Positions 2,531 to 28,134 of a stretch of DNA of 41,056 bases are shown in pieces (positions within the stretch are counted from its first letter, which is position 1; every line of letters starts with the position of its first letter). Under the pieces are notes generated by a model. The model worked only from the letters and a program-made list of their open reading frames with translations, did not search any database and had not been told where the DNA came from. The translations under genes were made by a program, and so were the position numbers. Source of the stretch: a virus. Where the stretch lies: the UHGV virus genome UHGV-1383708; one strand, written 5' to 3'.

Positions 2531-4831
2531 CTACTTCGTTAATATTTTAATCAAATCAATATTGCTTCCTTCTGATATTTCAGAAGGAACACTACCTGAT
2601 AACTTTATTGCATTAGATGAAATTCCTGAAACATCAGAAATCATATTTTTTGCCCCGCTAGTATATGCAACCTTAAAGTCATCATAAGGACCAGAATATG
2701 AAATTTCATCCTGGTTACGCACATATATAGTATTCCCGGACACCGATTTAACAACGTATCTATTTCTTAATATATTAACCTTAACATCAGATGCATCTTT
2801 TACATAACAGGTAACACCTGATGCTATATTTTCCATTTTGACATCAAGTGATGAATTAAACATCACAGCACCAGACCTGTGGATATTATGATCATCCATA
2901 TTTCTTCGAGGATACGCAGAACTATCCTTATAATATCTTCCGGTAAATCTGATATATTTGAAGGTAATTCCAGATGTATTACCACCCGACAGAATGACAA
3001 CCCTTATTGATTTTACTCCTCCTTTGTCGGTTATCCTAAACTTTGCATTACCGATGTTAGACTGGGTAGTAAAACGACTGTTTTCATCATCCCATGAAGC
3101 CCCTGGAAAACCAATCCCTTCAGGCTCATTTGTAATAACACTGCCATTCTCATCAATTCCATAAACCCTTATGCGGAATGCGCTGACATCAGAAGTAAAT
3201 GCAAACACATCGCCATTCCTGACGCTTATATCACCTGATTCCCAAATTGTCCTGAAGTTACGTCCAATAGCAAAACTACCATTAACAAGATGAATTAAAT
3301 TTCGCACACTTTTTACATCTGTAACATAATCAGGTGTATCTGAACTTCCCATATTAACGCTTGATAAAAATGGCGTTTTCTCACTCACTGAAAAAAGCGA
3401 CACTTCATTAGTTAGTTCTTCCTGAATATGATATACAGCATTTCCATTACCATTATCAGTGACAGTTACAAGATTGTTTGGGTTATATGGTTCATTGGTA
3501 TATGCAGAAAAGCTAAGCCATGATGCCTGAACAGAATTATTCCACGTATAACTACCAAAATTAATTCTTTGTGTGTCATCTGGGTTGTCTGGTCTGCGCT
3601 CAAAACGGAGTCCGTAAAAATGATTATTATTACCACGCTGAATGTCAATAACCCCAGTATTCTCCATCGTTCCACCAAAAAACTTGTTGTGATTATGTGA
3701 ATACGGATTATCAGCAATAATCACATTATTTGTCCTGTTTAGGTAAAACTTGTTTTCGTTTATCCAACCTCTAACTACACCAAGAAAATGAATTGTATCG
3801 ACCTTTTTCAGGTTAAAGGTTGAGTAGGCTATAGAATAATCTGTTTCATATACTGAATCATCAGAGTTTGCATATAACTGTAAGTAGTCGCAACGCTCAA
3901 TGTTAATATGCTGCCCTTTTGCCCCGATAATACGAATATCCGGTGTCGTTTCAGATGAAATACCAGAATTTCTGATAATCGTTCCGAAGTTTTGTCTTGG
4001 GTTGTTAGGGTTTGATGCATTCCCGCCAAGCAATACCCCTATCCCTGAGTGGGATATGGTAAAAACAGCATTGGTCATTTCGAGGCTGACATTACGAAGA
4101 TTTAATGTCTCCGTAATAATAAAATTACCTTCCGCTCGTAATGTTCTGGATGATTCTCGTGCATATTCTGCAGCCAGAATCAATGCAGATGTATCATCTG
4201 TTATACCATCGCCTTTTGCCCCAAAATCGCGAACACTAACGGTGTCTCTCATCTTATCCTGGAACGTTCGGTATACTGCTCCAGAACCATACTGAATAAA
4301 CCAACCAAAACCACCAATAACTCCGGCGATTGCAGCATCGACATAATTACGCATTGAGCGATTATTTACAGCGTCCTGCTCAAGTGATGGATCGGCAAGG
4401 TTAGATATTCTGTTTTGCTTTGCATCGTAATATTTTGCAAGCAAAGATGGTTTCATCAATGCACGTCTGAACCACCCAAAACATCGCTGGATCAGCATCG
4501 TCAGGTAGTCAAATGCATCCTCATGAACTTCGGGGAAAAATTTTCCCTGATTGCGAAGATCAGTCTCCTGCACCACATCAAGCACACGCTCTATCGTGAT
4601 TCGCCAGCCAGCAGCAAGCGGCGACGGAAGAACCACTGCACCGCCACTATAAGTTCCCGCCCCTGTTACCGTATAACCAGCATCCAGCACTAGTTTTGTA
4701 ACGTTACCGTTAAGGTCAGACACCTGAACAACCAGGTCGGATTTTTTGAAAATACGGAAGGTATACGGAAATGATGTCGTAACGCCGTTACCTGTGTATT
4801 CGTTGTGGTCAACTTCGGTTGAGACCGTCAT
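2531..4831 (-). CDS. Tailspike / receptor-binding protein
   Basis: 766 aa; N-terminus MTVSTEVDHNEYTGNGVTTSFPYTFRIFKKSDLVVQV recalled as conserved particle-binding domain; AT-rich Asn/Ser/Gly-rich C-terminal part; GGAGA RBS. Confidence 0.8.
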   Translation of the reverse strand: MTVSTEVDHNEYTGNGVTTSFPYTFRIFKKSDLVVQVSDLNGNVTKLVLDAGYTVTGAGTYSGGAVVLPSPLAAGWRITIERVLDVVQETDLRNQGKFFPEVHEDAFDYLTMLIQRCFGWFRRALMKPSLLAKYYDAKQNRISNLADPSLEQDAVNNRSMRNYVDAAIAGVIGGFGWFIQYGSGAVYRTFQDKMRDTVSVRDFGAKGDGITDDTSALILAAEYARESSRTLRAEGNFIITETLNLRNVSLEMTNAVFTISHSGIGVLLGGNASNPNNPRQNFGTIIRNSGISSETTPDIRIIGAKGQHINIERCDYLQLYANSDDSVYETDYSIAYSTFNLKKVDTIHFLGVVRGWINENKFYLNRTNNVIIADNPYSHNHNKFFGGTMENTGVIDIQRGNNNHFYGLRFERRPDNPDDTQRINFGSYTWNNSVQASWLSFSAYTNEPYNPNNLVTVTDNGNGNAVYHIQEELTNEVSLFSVSEKTPFLSSVNMGSSDTPDYVTDVKSVRNLIHLVNGSFAIGRNFRTIWESGDISVRNGDVFAFTSDVSAFRIRVYGIDENGSVITNEPEGIGFPGASWDDENSRFTTQSNIGNAKFRITDKGGVKSIRVVILSGGNTSGITFKYIRFTGRYYKDSSAYPRRNMDDHNIHRSGAVMFNSSLDVKMENIASGVTCYVKDASDVKVNILRNRYVVKSVSGNTIYVRNQDEISYSGPYDDFKVAYTSGAKNMISDVSGISSNAIKLSGSVPSEISEGSNIDLIKILTK

Positions 4832-6412: not shown

Positions 6413-6739
6413 ATGAGCAGAAGATATGTCAAGGAGCTGGCTATAGAGTCTGGCACCCCTTTGGGTATCGTTCCTGGCTCCAACTATGCCAAGGCTTTAA
6501 ACCGAGACTCTGTCGTCAAAGTTATATCAAGAGACATGAATATGGTCGGAGACGATCTCAGACGGTCAGAAAATCGTGTTTATGCTGAATATATAGTAAA
6601 GAACGGAAAAAAAATTGCAGCGCCTGCTGGCGGAAAATGGGCAATAGTGACAGGGAAAAACTCAAATGCAAGAGGAAAACCAGAAGCTAAAGGAATGTCC
6701 TTCGACAAATATGCAAAAATCTATTGGGCAACCAAGTGA
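6413..6739 (+). CDS. Hypothetical basic protein (108 aa), first gene of cargo cassette
   Basis: GAGGT RBS; operator palindrome 22 nt upstream; overlaps next gene in another frame. Confidence 0.45.
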   Translation: MSRRYVKELAIESGTPLGIVPGSNYAKALNRDSVVKVISRDMNMVGDDLRRSENRVYAEYIVKNGKKIAAPAGGKWAIVTGKNSNARGKPEAKGMSFDKYAKIYWATK

Positions 6740-7214
6740 TAACGAAGAAACTGAGTTCGAGGAAGTTGAGGAAGGGCTAAGTAACGAGATCATTCAACAC
6801 CCAGATGCCTTCACAAGAGTTCTTGATCGCCCTGAAATTCAGGAGATAGTTGTCGCTCACCATGCGTTTCAGGGTCCGCTTCCTCCCCCCTATCTGCTTC
6901 GCGGGTATCAGGATATTTTACCTGATGCCCCCGAACGCATCTTCCAGCTGACGGAGAAGGAGTTTGCTCACCGCCAGAAAATGGAGGAAAAGGCACTTGA
7001 CGGGGCTATTAATAGAGATAAACGTGGGCAGTGGTTTGGCCTGAGTGCAACTATTTTTACAGTAGCTTGTGCAACATTATTAGGTTTAACAGGTCATGAA
7101 GTTCTAGCTGGCACAGTGATCGGTACAGTTGTTGCAGTGGCTGGTATTTTCGTTCTTAGACAAAAACCAAGCATCAAGAAGAAATCTGAAGACAACAAAC
7201 CTGAAGAAAAGTAA
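6711..7214 (+). CDS. Acidic N-terminal / two-TM C-terminal protein, DUF2335-like (tentative)
   Basis: LPPPYLLRGYQDILPDAPERIFQLTEKEFAHRQ then hydrophobic hairpin WFGLSATIFTVACATLLGL...VIGTVVAVAGIFVL; start may be 6666. Confidence 0.5.
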   Translation: MQKSIGQPSDNEETEFEEVEEGLSNEIIQHPDAFTRVLDRPEIQEIVVAHHAFQGPLPPPYLLRGYQDILPDAPERIFQLTEKEFAHRQKMEEKALDGAINRDKRGQWFGLSATIFTVACATLLGLTGHEVLAGTVIGTVVAVAGIFVLRQKPSIKKKSEDNKPEEK

Positions 7215-7542: not shown

Positions 7543-8481
7543 TCAGAAGAACCCTGCCTTGTCGTTGATGTATTCCGCGTGCGTCTGGATATCACGCAGG
7601 CATTTGCTCACACCGACGATGTAGCAGAACATGGTGGTCAGCTCCGCCGCCGCGCCCGATACATCGTGCCCGTCTTCCTGTAACTGGTTCAGCAGATTCA
7701 TCAGCAGTGAGTTCTCCGTCAGGCCGAGAACACCAGACGGCGAATGAATCAGGCTACGGTAGCCGGGCTTCAGTGGATAACCATAACATTTTGTCTGTGT
7801 TTTAATTGCCTCACGAAGCGCATCTAACATCTTGACTGCCACTTCATCATTCTCTGATGCAGATCCAGCAGGGAGATACTCCCCTTCAAGCGGAACCCGA
7901 GCAACAAGAGACAACGCTTCGGCAAATTGATCTTCACCAATTTCTTTGTACGAACAGCCAAAATGAGATTTCAGTGACGACCACATGGTGATCATCGCCT
8001 TAGCCTGTTTTTCTTTTGGCAGAGACTGACCGCGACTCATGACGAGTTGTTTAATGGCTTCCTGCTGTTCAGTTGTTATTTTACCCGGCAACGCCTTTTT
8101 AGCTTTGCGTGGGTTAACCACATGGCCTTTAGTCCAGTACTCGTAGAGCACATCGTCACACTCTTCCTGATACTGGATTACCTTGTCGCGGATTTCAGGG
8201 CGGACTTTGTTAGGGCTGATGCTGTTCAACCAAGCTGCCAATTTTCGTAAAGCCATACAAATCATGGCTTGCACCCCACCGGCAGAAGGTATGGTGATTT
8301 CCACCATACCCTTCGAGAAGCGTTGAGAAATCTTCTTATGTTGAGATTTCCAGTCTAGCCCCATTCCCTCAACGATAGGTTTCATTGGGGTATACGGTTC
8401 GCCGTTGTGATTGACAACATAAAGCTCTGCGCCGTGGAATGGCACGTTGATAGTAGATACTGCTGTTGCTATACTCGTCAT
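7543..8481 (-). CDS. Antirepressor (Ant-type N-terminal region plus shared C-terminal domain)
   Basis: 312 aa; downstream of arc-like gene as in P22 immI; last 77 aa near-identical to C-terminus of gene 5599-6291. Confidence 0.7.
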   Translation of the reverse strand: MTSIATAVSTINVPFHGAELYVVNHNGEPYTPMKPIVEGMGLDWKSQHKKISQRFSKGMVEITIPSAGGVQAMICMALRKLAAWLNSISPNKVRPEIRDKVIQYQEECDDVLYEYWTKGHVVNPRKAKKALPGKITTEQQEAIKQLVMSRGQSLPKEKQAKAMITMWSSLKSHFGCSYKEIGEDQFAEALSLVARVPLEGEYLPAGSASENDEVAVKMLDALREAIKTQTKCYGYPLKPGYRSLIHSPSGVLGLTENSLLMNLLNQLQEDGHDVSGAAAELTTMFCYIVGVSKCLRDIQTHAEYINDKAGFF

Positions 8482-8553
8482 GTCGTTAATTCCTATACGT
8501 AGTTTTACGATACTGAAGCCCTGACGGTCTGGCCACCGTGGGGCTTCGCTGTT
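8482..8553 (+). ncRNA. Candidate sar-like antisense RNA covering the antirepressor translation start
   Basis: Plus-strand TTGATA-N17-TATACT promoter at 8447-8475 inside ant 5' end; hairpin GAAGCCC...GGGCTTC plus T-tract at 8515-8556. Confidence 0.4.
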
Positions 8554-8721
8554 TTATGCCACGCTATTCTTCTCACCAGTGAGTCCATACACTTTCCTCA
8601 GCTGATAGATAATCTCTGTATTGAACTTTCGGCATTCTTTTTCGCCATTTCTTTCAATAGCTAACTTCACATCGTCCGGAAAACGAACTCGTCGTTGACA
8701 CATCTCTTTTGCTTTTTGCAT
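8554..8721 (-). CDS. Arc-like ribbon-helix-helix repressor
   Basis: 55 aa; AAGGAG RBS; RRVRFPDDVKLAIERNGEKECRKFNTEIIYQL resembles P22 Arc; upstream of antirepressor. Confidence 0.7.
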   Translation of the reverse strand: MQKAKEMCQRRVRFPDDVKLAIERNGEKECRKFNTEIIYQLRKVYGLTGEKNSVA

Positions 8722-8841
8722 TTCATATCTCCTTAGCCCCACCGTGGGGCAAAATAATTGTCACACCGTGCGTCATTGATGTCAAGCACACGGTGAGGCA
8801 TACTTCAATCATTGCAAGTAACTCAATATTTGGTGAAGAAC

Positions 8842-9273
8842 ATGAGCAGAGAAGATCCACAACTAAGGATCAGACTTCCCGTCGAAGTAAAAGAAAAAAT
8901 AGAAATTTCTGCAAAAGCCAATAAGCGATCAATGAACGCTGAAATAGTACAACGTCTTGACACCAGTTTTCTGAAAGATATTCATGAAGATGACGTAATT
9001 TCTGCTTATGAAGCAAAAATCATTGCAAACAATGCACGACATGAAATATCAAATATTATTTTCAAAAGAACCTTTAATGAAATTAATAAGAAAATAACAC
9101 TTGGACATACAAGTTTTTATATAAACCTTAATGACCTTGAACTGGAATCACTTGCAGATAATGATTACCAGATCATCTTTGAAAAAACATTTAATAAGCT
9201 CAATGAACTAGGTTACATCATCTGTGAAAACTCATGGGATGCAGATGGTTTTGGAATTGAAATACCTGAATAG
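8842..9273 (+). CDS. Mnt-like ribbon-helix-helix repressor with ~100-aa C-terminal extension
   Basis: MSREDPQLRIRLPVEVKEKIEISAKANKRSMNAEIVQRL resembles P22 Mnt N-terminus; divergent from arc-like gene. Confidence 0.65.
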   Translation: MSREDPQLRIRLPVEVKEKIEISAKANKRSMNAEIVQRLDTSFLKDIHEDDVISAYEAKIIANNARHEISNIIFKRTFNEINKKITLGHTSFYINLNDLELESLADNDYQIIFEKTFNKLNELGYIICENSWDADGFGIEIPE

Positions 9274-9363
9274 GAAGAGCAAAAGGCGTGTACATATTAC
9301 ACGTCTTTAATACAATTGAAAAACGCCACATTACTGATGTATGTTACAACAAGGAGCGATATT

Positions 9364-9927
9364 TTGAAAACCATATCTATATTAAAGGTTGCATTAGGCG
9401 TCGCTATTATTTTGACTCTCTCAATATTGTTTTATTTTTACCACAAACAAACTGCTATTGCTCTTGATAGTCACGCGGCAAACTCATTTTTCTCAGAGTA
9501 CATAGTGCCGCTATCAGGAAGCGGTATAACAAATAAATATACTGACTATGACATCAAATATGGAATTGATGATGGGGAGACTATTGTATTACATGTAATC
9601 ATTAAAAACCTAATGACAGTAAATAAAAATACAGACTTCAACGATAAAAATACAATACATCACAACAACAGCAAAACATTAATTTCTTATAGTAGCAACA
9701 TCTATACGGATAAATACCTAAAATACATATCAGAAGATACAATAAAAGAAACCCGCGAAAAGTTAAAAAACATATATTGTGCATCCGGCAGTTTTCACAA
9801 ATTATCGCCGCAAGAGCGTTTATTCTACGAAGCAAGAAAACAACGTAAGTCAATAATATTACATTATTATGCTGATTCAGGGGAGACACTCATATTTAAT
9901 ATTGGGGTTTCCCCTGAATCATGCTAA
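9364..9927 (+). CDS. AT-rich membrane-anchored protein (about 188 aa), sieA-like position
   Basis: AAGGAG RBS 7 nt before TTG; N-terminal TM ILKVALGVAIILTLSILFYFY; markedly low GC; downstream of Mnt-like gene; start could instead be 9316 or 9337. Confidence 0.5.
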   Translation: MKTISILKVALGVAIILTLSILFYFYHKQTAIALDSHAANSFFSEYIVPLSGSGITNKYTDYDIKYGIDDGETIVLHVIIKNLMTVNKNTDFNDKNTIHHNNSKTLISYSSNIYTDKYLKYISEDTIKETREKLKNIYCASGSFHKLSPQERLFYEARKQRKSIILHYYADSGETLIFNIGVSPESC

Positions 9928-9938
9928 AGGTGTTTAAC

Positions 9939-12900
9939 TCACCGCATCACCGGATCCACCTGGTTTATTAGTGGCGCAATCCAGAACAGGTTATTGCCGG
10001 GTATCAGGGTTCGGACATTATGCACAATACGATCACCGGCATCACCATTCAACACTCCTGCGGTCACATCAATGATGCTATCCGCAAGACCAAATGACGG
10101 TCCGAATAGAGATCCTACGAATCCACGACTGGCATACCTAGACTGTGTGCCAGTGCCAAATAAAGCCCCCAGCCCAACAGCACCACCAGTAGCCTTTTCA
10201 GCCATATTGTTATATTCCATCAATGGCCCAAGAATACCGGATCTATCTATACCCTCAAGCACCAGCTTCTCTGGTGACCAGTCAACATTTTTCCCTTTCG
10301 ATGCTTCTTTAAGCGCATAGACCAGTGAGCCAAGAGCAATCTGAAATGCAGTGCCATAATAAAATTGCGCAGTTCCTTCCTGTAACCCACCAAGTAGCGC
10401 ACGGTTGTATGAAGCCGTTGTGAATGATTTAAACTGAAATATCGTTCGCCCCATTGGAGTACTCGCCCATAAAGGTGTGTCACCAATACCGGGGGTAATG
10501 ATAGTGTTATTAACGTCTTTCAGAACCGCTGACTGGAATACTCCGGCAACGTACTGATCGTCCCATTTATCAAAGTTACCAATGTGCCATCCATCAATTA
10601 CCTCACCATGTTTCTCGAACTCACTGCGAATACGCGCAGCCATATTGTCGTTGATACCGAGTTTTGCCATGCGACGTGCAGAAAACGCACCAGACAAAAT
10701 ACCGTCTGACGTGAGCATTCCGTTCATGGATTTGTTTATGTCATTAAATCGATCCATGAGTGTCAGCTTGCCGAAGGCATCAGTAATTCGCTCCATTCCT
10801 GCTTCGACTGCTGTTGTCCTGGAAGAACTGTCAACAAGATCACCAATTGCACGAGAACGTGAATGTAGTACAGTTTCCAATCCAATCCCCATCTTCAACA
10901 TCTCTTCTTTGCTGGCCTTAAATGCCGGTGATTGGGATATCTGAGAAGCATAGCCTTTCATGGAGTTACGGAAACCATTAACCATAACCCCTCTGGCCAG
11001 ATCTGGAATAGCTGATACTGTCATTCCACCGAGTTTTGTCGTGAAGTTCACATCCCGCAGAAAAGCGCCAGCACGAACAAAAAACGAAGACGGGTCATCA
11101 GGCATACCATATGTACCAACAAGACGATCGCGTAATGCTGTTATGTCTCTGAGATCATTTGCTCTTGATTTTGAAAGTCTGGACTGTTCTTTCCGTAATT
11201 CCTTTTCGTACTTTCGCATTAATGAATCGAGTTTACCCTGAGGAACAACTTCACCATTGCTCTCATAACGTGCTTTCAGATTTGCCACACTTTCGTCATA
11301 TTTTGCCTTTATTTTTTCAGGCACTTCCCGTAACAGACTGTCATATTCGTCCTCAATTAATTGCAGACGCTCTGTCATAGTTCGTTTGCCAAATGTTCTC
11401 GTCAACTCAATTTCTGCTGCCGCTTCACGGATATGACGTTGTAGAACGTAATTCACATCACTTTCGAGATAATCCCTGATAAGACTATCAGGCACATTTA
11501 ATGTTCTTTCTTTCGTACTACCTGCGGCTTTTACAGAAAATACGCTGACAAAATCCTGTGGAACCTTAGCACCAGTAATTTTATTAATTACGATATCCGC
11601 TGCAATTTCAGCATCCTCAGGATCCAGTGTTTTATTGCCTCTCGACCACCAGTCAACCAAAATACGTCGAAATTTATCGCGTTCACTGATTATTTTTCCA
11701 ACTTTATATATACGTGGGAAATAGCTTGCCTGGCCTAATGCTTTCAGTTCTTCATCTGGCGGCAATAAACCAAGCTTTTGCATTTCAACCTTCACCCGAT
11801 TTAATACAGTTCGCATCGCCTGCGCCGTTTCCTGAACAACAGGATTAGCATGCACATCACCGCTTCGCATAGCATTCCCAACCTGCTGACGAAATGAATC
11901 AAAACTCATGTCACCACCATCAGCTTTATACTTTGCGTATGCCTGTTTATTTCCGACAACAACAGCAGCTTCTTCACGCTGCCATCCACGTGTACGGGTT
12001 TCTACAGCTACCGGTGTTTCAATCCCCCTTTCATTTCCTTTAAGGGTGAAATTATTTTCGGCTAACTCCAGCGTTGTTTTTCGCACTGTCTTGGACGGAG
12101 ACTCCATTAACCTTGTCAAAGGAGTAAGATAGCTCCCTGCTTTCCATGCAGCCTTTCCAACCACCCCACCGGAAACAGGGGTTAAATCATCCAGAGTCGC
12201 TGTATCAATTTTCATAGCACCAACACTACCACCATCAGAAAGCGAAGCGGCAGCCCTGTCAGTCGCTGATGTAATGCTCATATTATCAAGAGCATCAGCA
12301 ACCTCACGCGTGGCTGCAGCCCGGACGGATGGCGAAAGCGCAACACCAGCACTGGCAAACACGCCGCTCATCATCGCACCCGCTGCAATGTGAGCGGCAC
12401 TTTCACCCCATGAGCGTGTTATTTGCTGATTATTCAGCACAACCTCGCTTAATGCTGTACCGGCTGCACCAATCGCAATCTGTGAGCCAATACGCGCCAG
12501 TGCCCCTCCTTGAGCACCGGGGATAAACATTGACGCAACAGTAACCGGATCCATTCCCGCAGCAATACTGGCAAGGGTTCCAACTACGCCAGCATCAGAC
12601 AATAAACGTCTGTCTTCATTTTCATCATCTATCTGCTGCTTAATCCACGCCGTTTCCTCTGGCGATCGGGAATCTGCAAATTTCGCCCCCCAGTATTCAT
12701 AACCGTGCAACTCATTTTTATCAGCATATGGGTTATAACCTTCGACCGGTTCAAACTGTCTGGCTGGTCGGAAAAAACCAGCCAGAATATTGTTCTGTCG
12801 CATTGCAGCCCCCCATACGGAAGGCTCCGGTGGCAATGGCTCAGGATTAGCCCCTTCCGGAAGGGCAACATCAAACCCAGTTTGTTCCGGCAAAACATTA

Positions 12901-12953
12901 CCTGACGGGATCAGTCCGTTATTAAGATCTTCAGCTTGTGCATAAACTGGCAT
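9939..12953 (-). CDS. Large internal virion/ejection protein (1004 aa)
   Basis: Last gene of structural block; start abuts upstream stop. Confidence 0.6.
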   Translation of the reverse strand: MPVYAQAEDLNNGLIPSGNVLPEQTGFDVALPEGANPEPLPPEPSVWGAAMRQNNILAGFFRPARQFEPVEGYNPYADKNELHGYEYWGAKFADSRSPEETAWIKQQIDDENEDRRLLSDAGVVGTLASIAAGMDPVTVASMFIPGAQGGALARIGSQIAIGAAGTALSEVVLNNQQITRSWGESAAHIAAGAMMSGVFASAGVALSPSVRAAATREVADALDNMSITSATDRAAASLSDGGSVGAMKIDTATLDDLTPVSGGVVGKAAWKAGSYLTPLTRLMESPSKTVRKTTLELAENNFTLKGNERGIETPVAVETRTRGWQREEAAVVVGNKQAYAKYKADGGDMSFDSFRQQVGNAMRSGDVHANPVVQETAQAMRTVLNRVKVEMQKLGLLPPDEELKALGQASYFPRIYKVGKIISERDKFRRILVDWWSRGNKTLDPEDAEIAADIVINKITGAKVPQDFVSVFSVKAAGSTKERTLNVPDSLIRDYLESDVNYVLQRHIREAAAEIELTRTFGKRTMTERLQLIEDEYDSLLREVPEKIKAKYDESVANLKARYESNGEVVPQGKLDSLMRKYEKELRKEQSRLSKSRANDLRDITALRDRLVGTYGMPDDPSSFFVRAGAFLRDVNFTTKLGGMTVSAIPDLARGVMVNGFRNSMKGYASQISQSPAFKASKEEMLKMGIGLETVLHSRSRAIGDLVDSSSRTTAVEAGMERITDAFGKLTLMDRFNDINKSMNGMLTSDGILSGAFSARRMAKLGINDNMAARIRSEFEKHGEVIDGWHIGNFDKWDDQYVAGVFQSAVLKDVNNTIITPGIGDTPLWASTPMGRTIFQFKSFTTASYNRALLGGLQEGTAQFYYGTAFQIALGSLVYALKEASKGKNVDWSPEKLVLEGIDRSGILGPLMEYNNMAEKATGGAVGLGALFGTGTQSRYASRGFVGSLFGPSFGLADSIIDVTAGVLNGDAGDRIVHNVRTLIPGNNLFWIAPLINQVDPVMR

Positions 12954-15670
12954 TATTTAGATCCCCACGAAAAGTAATCTTTAAATTTGTCCATACGTTC
13001 GTTATGCAGGCGCTGATACTGCTCATCCAGAGCGCGATGCTTGTCTTTGAAGTTTCGTATAGCCTGTCCACGCATAATTTCTTCCTGCTCGTACTGCTCC
13101 CGTTCCTGCTGCATTTTCTTATAAGGTTCCCAATCTTCTAGTGATGGTTCCCAACGCATAGGACGCCCATGTTTGTTATAAAACGGCTGGACCCGATCGA
13201 TGCCATTTTCATCCTTAGTTCTTACCATAATGGCGTAATCACCATTACGAGGTGTTAACACGTCAGGGGTTATGAATAATTCTCCATTAATACGACTCTC
13301 AGGGGTTTTTGTCTCAACTACAGGAGCATTACCTGACGTGATCCCAAGCAACGTCGGACTGGTTGTTATAATCTCTTTGCGCTCACCGTACATCAGCCGT
13401 TCTTTTTCAGCTTTCCACTGCGCCGCCTGCCAGCCTGACGGCCCATATTGATAAAGCGCCTCCGGTGCATATTTCATAAACTGCGCTTCTCCGTTAACCT
13501 CGCTGATACTCCAGGTGCGGGCTATCTGCTGGTTGGTCATTTGCTTCGCTACGTCAGCGTTACCACCAGCAACGCGGTAGTTAATGTCATACAGCGTCTG
13601 ATAGTCATTACGGAATCTAGCTGCTTCCGGCGTCTGGTCATCCGCAGACGGATCCCAACGGAACCACTGCGCCATATTGCTGACAGCAGAATTCATCGCC
13701 TTGCTGCGATTATTTTTGTACTCTTTTGAACTCTGCGTTGATGCCAATTGAGCTTTAAGAGCATCGGTCTGGTTGTACGTCAGGTTCTGCGCCTGCTCGA
13801 TAGCCGCATCAGCAGACATGCCAGAATCTGTTAGTTGCTTAACAGTCAGATAAAAACCCTGCATATCCTTCGGCATATTTCCAATAGATGCATTGTCTGT
13901 TTCATATAACCGACTAAACAAATTCGCTGCATTTTTAACCACTTCCTGATTGCTGGATCTGGATACTGCTGAAAGCTGCGTGATGACCTGCGAAGGCATG
14001 ATGCCAGTCTGAGCCACAAGCCGAACAACCCCATCATGAGTGGAGGCATCATTAATACGAAAGTTCTGCGCCATTTCTGTGTAATCAGCAGCTTTCTGCA
14101 TTGATTTGTTGCTTGGGTCTAATTTTTCACCTATTGTCAGCGCCTCATTGAATCTGCGTGAATCACGTTGCGCCTGAATTGCTTCATTTGATCGCTGAAG
14201 CAATGCAGACAATTTTCCGTAAGCATCGAGTTTTAACGCATAGTGAGGATCGTTAACCTCAGGCTTCACTTTCTGCATTTCTTCTTGCTGCTGAGAAGGA
14301 GGTAAATACTGAATTGCCTGGAATATTCTCGCGTTATCAATCGCTATATCCAGTTGATTGATTATTTTATCTGCATTTTTTCCATACCCCCTGATGATAG
14401 TCTCCTGAGCCGGTATATAATCTGGAACCTCACCGTTATATAGCTGGGCCATGGTGTTATTAATAGCTGGCTCAAGCTGTTCTAATATTAACTTCCTTTG
14501 CTTTTCTATCTGACTATTAGCAAGGTTATCTATTTGATAAATAGTCAGCGGATCCATTCCAGTTTTATTTTTTCTATATCGGGAAAGCCACCCTTGTGTT
14601 TCTGATGGAAGATTTCGGATAAATTCTTCTTCTGATATTTCACCTTTACGTGGATCACCGACTTTGGCGATCAGTTTATCCACGTTACCCATCCCCCAGT
14701 TATATGCTGCTCCGGTCAATATTTCGGAGCCGTACTTACCATACAGTTGATTTACATAGTCACTGGCGAGCATTTCATGCTGTTGTTCGTCCGTAGGGTT
14801 GTATTTAACGCCACGCTTGGCCGCCAGTTCTTTCCCTGTGCCCGGCATTAACTGGTATTTCCCCTGGGCTCTCTCTCCAGAAGATGTTATCGGTCCTTCA
14901 AGAAGACTACCATCAGGATTAAAATGTCGATCACCTGATTCAACAAGGCGTATGGCACGCATGTCCATGCCTCCAGAATCATTTTTCTGAAACAGACCAT
15001 TTAGCCATCCTTCTGGATTGGCAGCGGCATAATTCTTCGCCCGCATTTCTGTGGCACGGCGATCATCACTTTCTATTTCTTCCAGAATGCGTTCTTGTGA
15101 CCATCCCCTGGCAGCTCCATATCTGGCAATGGCTACCATTCTGGAATTTCTGGCTAAAGTGGCAGTTTGCGGGTCATTCCAGGCATCCGCTTCATTTTGT
15201 ATCCATAATTTTCTCGTTGCCTGATATTGCTCATCTTCATAGGCATTTGTCTGCCCTATCTCATGTCTGAGAACTCCAGTACTGAACTGAATTTTCTGTG
15301 TTCTGGCTTGTTGCAAAAACATATTTCTTGCTGCTTCATCAGTCAATGAAGCAGCTATTTCTTCCACATCCTGATCAAATCCAGATATGTACTCTTGCCC
15401 CTTACCAATCGCATTTTTGCCTTGTTGTGCATAAAAACCGGTTTGAGGGTTATAAAGACGTTCATTGCTGCGCTGATTAAGCTGAAGGATGGCATCCTGA
15501 GACAATGCAACATTCGCTTTCTGCCTGGCTTCACCATATGCCACCGCATACTGATCTGCGACATTCGCCAGCACCTGACCTGCTTGAGGAACATCGAAGG
15601 TCTGAAAACCACCGGTTTGCACACCACGACTTTGCACCTGGCGTCCGGATACTGTTGGTACGACTGGCAT
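12953..15670 (-). CDS. Internal virion/ejection protein with lytic transglycosylase (SLT) domain
   Basis: 905 aa from ATG 15670; motif ERAQGKYQLMPGTGKELAAKRGV ... AAYNWGMGNV typical of SLT domains. Confidence 0.75.
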   Translation of the reverse strand: MPVVPTVSGRQVQSRGVQTGGFQTFDVPQAGQVLANVADQYAVAYGEARQKANVALSQDAILQLNQRSNERLYNPQTGFYAQQGKNAIGKGQEYISGFDQDVEEIAASLTDEAARNMFLQQARTQKIQFSTGVLRHEIGQTNAYEDEQYQATRKLWIQNEADAWNDPQTATLARNSRMVAIARYGAARGWSQERILEEIESDDRRATEMRAKNYAAANPEGWLNGLFQKNDSGGMDMRAIRLVESGDRHFNPDGSLLEGPITSSGERAQGKYQLMPGTGKELAAKRGVKYNPTDEQQHEMLASDYVNQLYGKYGSEILTGAAYNWGMGNVDKLIAKVGDPRKGEISEEEFIRNLPSETQGWLSRYRKNKTGMDPLTIYQIDNLANSQIEKQRKLILEQLEPAINNTMAQLYNGEVPDYIPAQETIIRGYGKNADKIINQLDIAIDNARIFQAIQYLPPSQQQEEMQKVKPEVNDPHYALKLDAYGKLSALLQRSNEAIQAQRDSRRFNEALTIGEKLDPSNKSMQKAADYTEMAQNFRINDASTHDGVVRLVAQTGIMPSQVITQLSAVSRSSNQEVVKNAANLFSRLYETDNASIGNMPKDMQGFYLTVKQLTDSGMSADAAIEQAQNLTYNQTDALKAQLASTQSSKEYKNNRSKAMNSAVSNMAQWFRWDPSADDQTPEAARFRNDYQTLYDINYRVAGGNADVAKQMTNQQIARTWSISEVNGEAQFMKYAPEALYQYGPSGWQAAQWKAEKERLMYGERKEIITTSPTLLGITSGNAPVVETKTPESRINGELFITPDVLTPRNGDYAIMVRTKDENGIDRVQPFYNKHGRPMRWEPSLEDWEPYKKMQQEREQYEQEEIMRGQAIRNFKDKHRALDEQYQRLHNERMDKFKDYFSWGSK

Positions 15671-16215
15671 TATAATCCTCCGGGTAATCTGGTTCCTGCT
15701 GCTGCCCCGATTGGCGCAGGGGTGCTTTGAGTAAACGGACTCCACGTCCCACCAAACATCTGGTACGCACCGTATGCCTTCAGAGGCGCAGTGAGCAATG
15801 TTGTTGCTGATCCCACATTCCCCTGTTTACGGGCTGAACTGGCTTCTGCTTTATAGTTGGCAGCCTGAACCTGATAACCGTAAGCCTCGCGTTGCGCGTT
15901 ATTCACCGTCGTCAGAGAATCAAGAGCGCCAAACTGGGCAGTGTCGCCAAATATATCCAGCGCGTTACCTGTAGATAAATCAGCGCCGGTAGCCCCCATT
16001 GTCGCCGCCTGTGTACCAAGCCGCTGTCGGGTCTCTCTGCGCCGTTGCTCAGCTTCAGCGTTACCTCTGTTTATTGCATCATTTGCCTGAGCAGTGGCTA
16101 TATCTGCGTTCGCTTCTGCAACCTTCGAGGCATACTTTCCCTGTTGGTACTGGGTGTATGCCTGAATGCCACTCATGGCGAGCATTGCGCCACCAGCAAT
16201 AACCGGATCGCACAT
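15670..16215 (-). CDS. Internal virion protein (181 aa)
   Basis: Ala/Gln-rich; stop overlaps next start. Confidence 0.5.
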   Translation of the reverse strand: MCDPVIAGGAMLAMSGIQAYTQYQQGKYASKVAEANADIATAQANDAINRGNAEAEQRRRETRQRLGTQAATMGATGADLSTGNALDIFGDTAQFGALDSLTTVNNAQREAYGYQVQAANYKAEASSARKQGNVGSATTLLTAPLKAYGAYQMFGGTWSPFTQSTPAPIGAAAGTRLPGGL

Positions 16216-28094: not shown

Positions 28095-28134
28095 AACCAC
28101 CGTGGTAATAGTTACCGTTGTGGTAATAGTACCA

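Follow-up and report, generated by a model that had tools for sequence, protein, structure and literature searches.

In phage P22, gene 16 runs toward sieA, orf59a and mnt, which are read in the opposite direction, and mnt is divergent from arc, ant and gene 9. The product of sieA blocks DNA injection, and mutations that escape it fall in the ejection proteins gp16 and gp20 (PMC10883804). Here we describe the corresponding locus in the virus genome UHGV-1383708, a stretch of 41,056 nucleotides (nt) that was analyzed at its full length and is referred to below as the window. Between positions 8842 and 9927, an original prediction had placed the gene of a Mnt-like repressor with an additional C-terminal domain (8842-9273) and that of a membrane-anchored protein (9364-9927). 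Both open reading frames (ORFs) are there, and Pfam, the Protein Data Bank (PDB) entry 1mnt and an alignment with P22 Mnt agree on the nature of the first. The second, 187 amino acids (aa) long and called ORF187, belongs to a rare, uncharacterized family of exported proteins that could represent an exclusion factor of a new, entry-blocking type. Rather than a functional pair, the two genes are independent modules.

In the periplasm, T4 Spackle inhibits the tail lysozyme of T4. With Spackle, HK97 gp15 and TP-J34 Ltp, ORF187 would share the concept of a phage-encoded extracytoplasmic protein that blocks entry (see also PMC10883804); their targets and phage types are different, and we found no relation to ORF187 in sequence or fold. 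In structure, the nearest described proteins are the secretin-binding pilotin AspS (YghG) and PA3611, the closest structural relative of AspS, which share a conserved disulfide tying helix alpha2 to the C-terminal helix (PMC3542185). Literature searches on TL-2011b, on Uetakevirus and on epsilon15/phiV10 exclusion turned up no study of the long mnt or of ORF187.

ORF187 occupies the position of sieA

The window is the genome of an epsilon15-like (Uetakevirus-type, TL-2011b-type) temperate podophage in reverse orientation. As the original prediction had stated, its second gene sits where P22 carries sieA: in both phages the gene in this slot borders immI, converges on the last ejection-protein gene and is transcribed against the late operon. 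The stop codon of ORF187 lies 11 base pairs (bp) from the conserved 3' end of the ejection-protein gene. We compared seven contexts, namely the window, Salmonella P0137, Klebsiella P0138 and P0126, Citrobacter P0134, metagenomic P0005 and the distant P0151. The ORF187 gene was convergent with the gene for a 959- to 1005-aa ejection protein in all seven, either overlapping it or 0-11 bp apart, and that gene followed one for an SLT-domain protein in the contexts examined. TL-2011b gp38 likewise comes after an SLT-domain protein, as the last ejection protein of the window does.

The opposite flank was variable. An immI region accompanies the homologue in the window, P0126 and P0005; it is absent from P0137, P0138 and P0134, where the homologue is flanked by the small terminase gene and the ejection gene, and in P0151 the preceding genes are Bro-N and HicAB. 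The ejection protein is itself well conserved, with 75% identity between the window's copy and the Salmonella P0137 neighbor and an almost invariant extreme C-terminus. In the distant homologues P0153 and P0156, C-terminal tails created by read-through correspond to what the ejection gene's conserved 3' end would encode on its antisense strand.

Other genes can fill the same slot. A prophage of E. coli BCE049 (L003, 4448-4975) with the same ejection-gene end carries an unrelated 175-aa protein there, a member of PHROG 21690 (function unassigned) with a transmembrane helix at its N-terminus and a gene of GC content 0.354. AT-rich genes for envelope proteins thus seem to have a hot spot in this slot.

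Low GC content was part of the original prediction, and our profile confirmed it: positions 8842-9927 have a GC content of 0.326 against a window mean of 0.48 (standard deviation 0.042 for segments of the same length), essentially the lowest in the window. The two genes are equally AT-rich, at 0.322 for the Mnt-like gene and 0.324 for ORF187. This had been taken as a sign of recent horizontal acquisition, which does not hold up. Homologues of Salmonella, Klebsiella and Citrobacter with 41-54% identity to ORF187 occupy the same position and are equally AT-rich, at 0.33-0.38 compared with 0.48-0.53 for the surrounding loci. AT-richness throughout the family implies that low GC is a long-standing family trait and not a mark of recent arrival. 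Over the same comparisons, the adjacent ejection proteins share 70-79% identity. Judged from these alignments, the pattern fits a fast-evolving, exchangeable cassette that may be anchored by recombination at the conserved flank.

The ORF187 family corresponds to PHROG 8033 and is small. A word-indexed search returned 5 relatives, a profile search 28, and an exhaustive HMMER scan of 1.84 billion representatives 17, all of them lacking annotation; by tblastn, TL-2011b was the only match among 50,697 phage records. Several database alleles vary in their reading frames. P0002 and P0004 have frameshifts near G/C runs at the 3' end (…GVSLNH…; positions ~9900-9927 of the window), with P0004 reading on into the antisense of the ejection gene, and in P0003 the frameshift falls further upstream, after …DTIK; all three alleles lose the C-terminal cysteine.

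ORF187 carries an export signal and a pilotin-like fold

The TTG start codon of ORF187 is preceded by AGGAG 7 nt upstream. The protein has a single hydrophobic stretch at residues ~3-27, with Kyte-Doolittle means over 19 residues of up to 2.47, and AlphaFold2 models residues 3-27 as a helix. A possible cleavage site, AIA before L, follows at residues 31-33. In 16 of 24 aligned homologues the N-terminus is short and reads as a classic cleavable signal peptide, e.g., MKKLIPLLLIFPFIAFA with S as the first residue after the cut, while ORF187 of the window and a few others have a longer hydrophobic N-terminus and then an additional helix. Since most homologues bear cleavable signal peptides, the conserved domain is placed in the periplasm. 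The original prediction of a single-pass membrane protein with a large C-terminal domain is thereby modified: the one hydrophobic helix stands, and the conserved domain is periplasmic.

In the alignment of 24 sequences, 17 columns are invariant and 35 nearly so. Cys139 is among the invariant residues, and the C-terminal Cys187 is nearly invariant within the motif SPESC. As modeled, the protein forms an alpha/beta domain in which a five-stranded sheet is flanked by helices, fitting the pilotin-like fold of AspS and PA3611; its closest folds were PA3611 (PDB 3npd) and AspS/YghG (PDB 4ftf and 5zdh). Cys139 closes the helix at residues 124-138 and Cys187 lies at the C-terminus, so that the two conserved cysteines occupy positions matching those of the AspS/PA3611 disulfide. 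A Cys139-Cys187 disulfide probably stabilizes the domain. Residues 86-111 form an Asn-rich insert modeled with low confidence, within which the homologue P0001 has a 7-residue deletion.

ORF187 also departs from these proteins in several respects. AspS is an outer-membrane lipoprotein, whereas neither ORF187 nor its close homologues have a lipobox, a feature that PA3611 likewise lacks (PMC3542185). ORF187 differs from both in its insert at 86-111, in being phage-borne and in having no known secretin partner. An NCBIfam search with ORF187 returned nothing.

The long Mnt belongs to a widespread repressor family

The Mnt-like ORF begins with ATG, and residues 2-46 of its product match the Pfam Arc family PF03869 at 54.5 bits against a cut-off of 20.4. 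P22 Mnt (1mnt) was the best PDB sequence match (E 3.5e-7), and BLASTP aligned it at 32% identity over residues 1-86 (E 3e-14). AlphaFold2 (predicted local distance difference test, pLDDT, 80) models a ribbon-helix-helix at 1-46, a long helix at 55-86 and an extra beta-alpha-beta-beta subdomain at 87-143. The helix at 55-86 aligns with the C-terminal helix of P22 Mnt, beyond which the protein runs on for ~57 residues. Hence, the original estimate of about 100 extra residues was too high: because the alignment takes in Mnt's C-terminal helix, the truly extra part is ~57-60 residues (87-143), and the size ratio to P22 Mnt is 143/83, or 1.7. The protein matches PHROG 1388, which has no assigned function, over its full length.

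The ribbon-helix-helix is shared with P22 Mnt, and the C-terminal part has no significant relative by Foldseek against the PDB or by profile search; the matches returned were to ribbon-helix-helix proteins, plus non-significant ones to winged-helix or S6-like folds. PADLOC gave no match for the long Mnt. A weak Rfam match to an S15 leader at 8931-9045 was disregarded, being below threshold and inside the mnt coding region. NikR-type architecture consists of a ribbon-helix-helix fused to an alpha/beta domain for oligomerization or ligand binding. The long Mnt resembles NikR in having an N-terminal ribbon-helix-helix followed by a compact alpha/beta domain, but it shows no detectable match in fold or sequence to the ACT-like domain of NikR and no metal-binding motif. 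The extra region, comprising helix 55-86 and the beta-alpha-beta-beta unit, is most likely an enlarged oligomerization module that has assumed the role of Mnt's tetramerization helix, although oligomerization is the default reading for a domain with no structural relative. The best reading of the protein as a whole would be a functional Mnt whose tetramerization helix has grown into a larger oligomerization or interaction domain.

The long Mnt is a member of a large, conserved Enterobacterales family. We found homologues of 142-152 aa in at least 262 clusters at 90% identity, aligned end to end, in Escherichia, Salmonella, Enterobacter, Citrobacter, Klebsiella, Yersinia, Proteus, Cronobacter and others. 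These homologues are 58-69% identical, and 38 invariant columns are spread over both their N-terminal and their C-terminal parts. Yersinia pestis and Enterobacter have a three-gene unit in which long mnt is divergent from a 55-aa arc and a Bro-N/antirepressor gene, and this unit sits among the clustered tail genes of lambda-like and HK97-like siphovirus prophages, where no co-directional gene follows long mnt. Long mnt thus travels as a mobile mnt-arc-antirepressor cassette across phage types, in podovirus and siphovirus prophages of many Enterobacterales. In Y. pestis chromosomes L016-L018, the cassette, with its gene at 4001-4432, stands between tail genes of a lambda-like prophage, and the long-Mnt protein turns up in over 550 indexed blocks of Y. 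pestis assemblies. Among the 50,697 phage records, tblastn with the Mnt C-terminal domain found TL-2011b only. The mnt of TL-2011b has an extra G in codon 9 (position 8866 of the window), and the resulting +1 frameshift explains its truncated 113-aa annotation; TL-2011b may be truly mnt-defective, or the extra base may be a sequencing error. The window's copy is intact at this site.

The control region is of the P22 immI type

The locus resembles P22 immI in its divergent mnt and arc-ant layout, its sar RNA, its overlapping face-to-face promoters and an operator-like palindrome with a CCAC-N-GTGG core just downstream of Pant. Between arc and mnt, a promoter scan identified a Pant-like promoter on the minus strand (TTGACA at 8785-8780 and GACAAT at 8762-8757), and a candidate Pmnt was picked out by eye (TTGATG at 8776-8781, 17 nt, CATACT at 8799-8804). 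Three palindromes with a CAC(C/G)GTG core are present at 8736-8750, 8759-8775 and 8786-8800, with centers at 8743, 8767 and 8792, which puts them 24-25 bp, or about 2.3 helical turns, apart. The first reads GCCCCAC-C-GTGGGGC and is found immediately downstream of the predicted Pant -10 element. P22 Omnt (AGGTCCAC-G-GTGGACCT) has the same CCAC-N-GTGG core and the same placement relative to Pant. CCACSGTGG occurs 3 times in the window, compared with 0.15 expected. The loop of the sar terminator contains CCACCGTGG (8533-8541), the same core as in the Mnt-type operator. A third CCACCGTGG site, at 28097, has an unrelated context and was judged to be a chance match.

The match to the sar antisense RNA family RF00262 scored 44.8 bits against a gathering score of 43 (E 3.1e-7), and a promoter-like site was found by the promoter scan upstream of sar at 8447-8475. 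This full-length match above the gathering score implies that a complete P22-type immI set (mnt, arc, sar and ant) is present in an epsilon15-like prophage. The 120-bp control region is conserved in the Yersinia and Enterobacter cassettes, i.e., in unrelated prophage types. Two features set the locus apart from P22 immI: a Mnt of 143 aa rather than 83, with its added beta-alpha-beta-beta unit, and three related palindromes rather than one Omnt plus one Oarc. By comparison with P22, the ribbon-helix-helix of the long Mnt most likely binds the Omnt-like palindrome, perhaps along with the two related ones that follow at intervals of 24-25 bp, and this binding would keep the antirepressor off in the lysogen.

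Genomic setting

The features of the locus are collected in Table 1. Positions 8500-10000 of the window are 99.5% identical to Escherichia phage TL-2011b (NC_019445). The same 1.5-kilobase block was found in 36 of 5,426 complete E. coli genomes at 97-99.9% identity and was chromosomal every time. The accessory region between the tailspike gene and ant contains, at 6666-7214 on the plus strand, an ORF for a DUF2335 'predicted membrane protein' (Pfam 1.6e-15), while the annotation of TL-2011b shows a YafO-family toxin near the corresponding position; this accessory region therefore differs between the window and TL-2011b.

Table 1. Features of the immI-ORF187 locus in the window, with positions, strand and basis of assignment.
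Feature	Positions	Strand	Basis
Antirepressor Ant gene, 312 aa	7543..8481	-	Pfam P22_AR_N 5.9e-45; PHROG 524/245 anti-repressor Ant
sar antisense RNA, between arc and ant	8483..8550	+	Rfam RF00262, full length
Arc-like repressor gene, 55 aa from ATG at 8721	8554..8721	-	TL-2011b annotation; weak Arc and PHROG 228 matches
Divergent control region, arc/mnt	8722..8841	.	Repeats, promoter scan
Long-form Mnt repressor gene, 143 aa	8842..9273	+	Pfam Arc 1.1e-14
Hairpin, 11-bp stem, directly 3' of mnt stop codon	9282..9308	+	RNA fold
ORF187 gene, 187 aa	9364..9927	+	TTG start, AGGAG upstream
Last ejection / internal virion protein gene, 1004 aa	9939..12953	-	ORF list; equivalent to TL-2011b gp38
SLT-domain ejection protein gene	12953..15745	-	Upstream neighbor of last ejection-protein gene

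The 90-bp gap between mnt and ORF187 holds a hairpin with a folding energy of -13.1 kcal/mol (z -3.5), possibly a weak terminator or a regulatory site. Overlapping it, upstream of ORF187, is a promoter-like site with TGTACA at 9289-9294, 16 nt, and TACAAT at 9311-9316. The arrangement recalls that of P22, with a terminator after mnt/orf59a and a separate promoter for sieA. The relatives P0126 (Klebsiella) and P0005 are organized differently, in that the start codon of the homologue overlaps the stop region of a mnt-type gene encoding 120-121 aa, a Mnt subtype distinct from the 143-aa form. This overlap implies an operon in P0126 and P0005. The original prediction had named ORF187 as the accessory gene most likely to be expressed from the prophage, on the grounds that Mnt-type promoters are active in lysogens. 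Expression together with mnt is plausible given the overlap in these two relatives, and less certain given the intervening hairpin and promoter-like site of the window.

Discussion

We propose, at a probability of roughly 40%, that ORF187 is expressed by the prophage, acts in the periplasm and there disturbs the conduit through which related podophages enter. Under this proposal, ORF187 would be an accessory ('moron') gene transcribed against the late operon, and its product would be exported, with the conserved domain of ~150 residues folding in the periplasm in the manner of PA3611 and AspS. Once there, it would obstruct the DNA-delivery conduit that the ejection proteins of the incoming phage build, be it by binding a part exposed to the periplasm or by other means, making it a positional and functional analogue of P22 SieA rather than a homologue. 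Observations in favor of the proposal include the export signals and conserved cysteines of the family; the convergence against the last ejection-protein gene in every context compared, with P22 sieA in the same position; the read-through tails of P0153 and P0156; the overlap with an upstream mnt-type gene in two relatives; the unrelated membrane-anchored protein gene in the same slot of a related prophage; and an AT-rich family that diverges faster than the neighboring ejection protein. Both proteins are located in the envelope, and SieA targets the ejection-protein conduit (PMC10883804). The two are nevertheless distinct in build. SieA has three or four transmembrane helices compared with the one N-terminal hydrophobic segment of ORF187, and its conserved motif FxRYPxEAxxFNK is cytoplasmic (PMC10883804) and absent from ORF187, whose conserved part is periplasmic. 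Their host phages are P22-like and epsilon15-like, respectively. Superinfection exclusion is a plausible function, and ORF187 a reasonable candidate for it.

Several results weigh against this proposal or its components. Homology to SieA was considered and rejected, with BLASTP giving E 0.25 over the hydrophobic stretch only. The link to AspS and PA3611 is at the level of fold, as ORF187 had no Pfam, PDB sequence or PDB profile matches and hhalign of its family against E. coli YghG gave a probability of 0.1%; the model itself holds a 26-residue insert of low confidence. Foldseek of the model against viral structures (BFVD) returned nothing below E 0.02, and PADLOC returned nothing significant, its sole match being a ThsB TIR-like model (E 0.0053, 15 bits). 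The N-terminus of the window's ORF187 may be either a signal anchor or a long signal peptide. Across 21 pairs, divergence of ORF187 and of the ejection protein correlated at r 0.2-0.4, and a correlation this weak between identity matrices gives no sign of co-evolution with the adjacent ejection protein. With a hairpin and a promoter-like site between the genes, ORF187 may not be transcribed from Pmnt. Finally, frameshifts near the 3' end deprive some database alleles of Cys187, which could reflect assembly errors or lineage-specific decay.

The fold resemblance invites a different reading, in which ORF187 is a lysogenic-conversion factor acting on the host envelope, either as a lipid-less pilotin mimic or as a virulence or fitness factor like lambda Bor. 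A mimic could target the S-domain of a secretin, such as GspD of a type II secretion system (T2SS) or the secretin of type IV pili or of filamentous phage. Export, AT-richness and carriage by a prophage suit this reading, as do the closest folds, PA3611 and the secretin-binding AspS (PMC3542185), and the uncoupling of ORF187 divergence from that of the ejection protein. We nonetheless consider it unlikely, since it leaves the placement against the last ejection-protein gene in every context unexplained and since ORF187 lacks both a lipobox and sequence similarity to AspS/YghG. The constant placement also bears on a sub-case of exclusion, in which ORF187 would be a Spackle-like periplasmic inhibitor of the SLT domain of a superinfecting phage and would stop it from crossing the peptidoglycan. 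The periplasmic location of ORF187, the SLT-domain protein that is always part of the adjoining ejection-protein pair and the general precedent of T4 Spackle are in line with this; we rate it as quite unlikely. More tentative than the proposal above, and in our view doubtful, is its extension to the family, by which PHROG 8033 would be an unrecognized class of periplasmic exclusion proteins of epsilon15-like and related temperate podophages. Here the pilotin-like domain, stabilized by its disulfide, would capture a periplasm-exposed segment of the conduit as a pilotin grips the C-terminal S-domain of a secretin, thereby blocking DNA delivery; the gene itself would fill the 'sieA slot' without homology to sieA, kept in place through recombination at the ejection gene's conserved 3' end.

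The adjacency of the two genes raises the question of whether they work together, as a Mnt-driven operon or as a toxin-antitoxin or abortive-infection pair, in which the membrane protein would be the effector and the ribbon-helix-helix protein its antitoxin or regulator. They share a strand and an equally unusual GC content, lie 90 bp apart, are always together in the 36 complete E. coli genomes, and in two relatives a mnt-type gene overlaps the start of the homologue. However, the 143-aa Mnt family is widespread without a co-directional gene downstream, and ORF187 homologues occur without any Mnt, from which we conclude that the modules are independent. The Mnt partners in Klebsiella and P0005 are moreover of the different, 120-121-aa type, the hairpin and promoter-like site separate the genes in the window, and a periplasmic domain with a chaperone-like fold is untypical of a toxin. 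A single functional unit is accordingly improbable, and the toxin-antitoxin idea in particular was dropped because each gene is widespread without the other. At the other extreme, ORF187 might be a decaying, functionless remnant in a recombination-neutral gap, a view that would accommodate the very small family, the frameshifted database alleles, the Asn-rich insert of low confidence and the 7-residue deletion within it in P0001. This is highly improbable given full-length ORFs with 17 invariant columns across Escherichia, Salmonella, Klebsiella and Citrobacter down to 41% identity, the conservation of export signals and of both cysteines, and a gene that is intact at 97-99.9% DNA identity in those 36 genomes. 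Interference with the entry conduit of related podophages remains the reading that we favor for ORF187.

The structure and profile comparisons called for by the original prediction gave a different outcome for each protein, with ORF187 showing an AspS/PA3611-like fold without profile homology and the Mnt C-terminal domain showing no relative. Of the two, the long Mnt matters less. As a variant of a textbook repressor it is uncharacterized yet very common, with hundreds of Yersinia pestis assemblies containing it. With three candidate operators in its control region, it could serve as a simple model for asking what an additional domain does to the way a ribbon-helix-helix repressor assembles. 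If the exclusion proposal is true, ORF187 would be the second such protein besides SieA, periplasmic and unrelated to it, from the equivalent slot in another podophage lineage, which would make the slot a general home of entry-blocking genes. ORF187 would then also be a soluble, tractable probe of the poorly understood trans-periplasmic conduit of epsilon15-like phages. This prophage type occurs in pathogenic E. coli, including Shiga toxin-producing E. coli (STEC) O103 and avian pathogenic E. coli (APEC) strains, where an exclusion factor, if confirmed as such, would bear on phage typing and on the choice of therapeutic phages.

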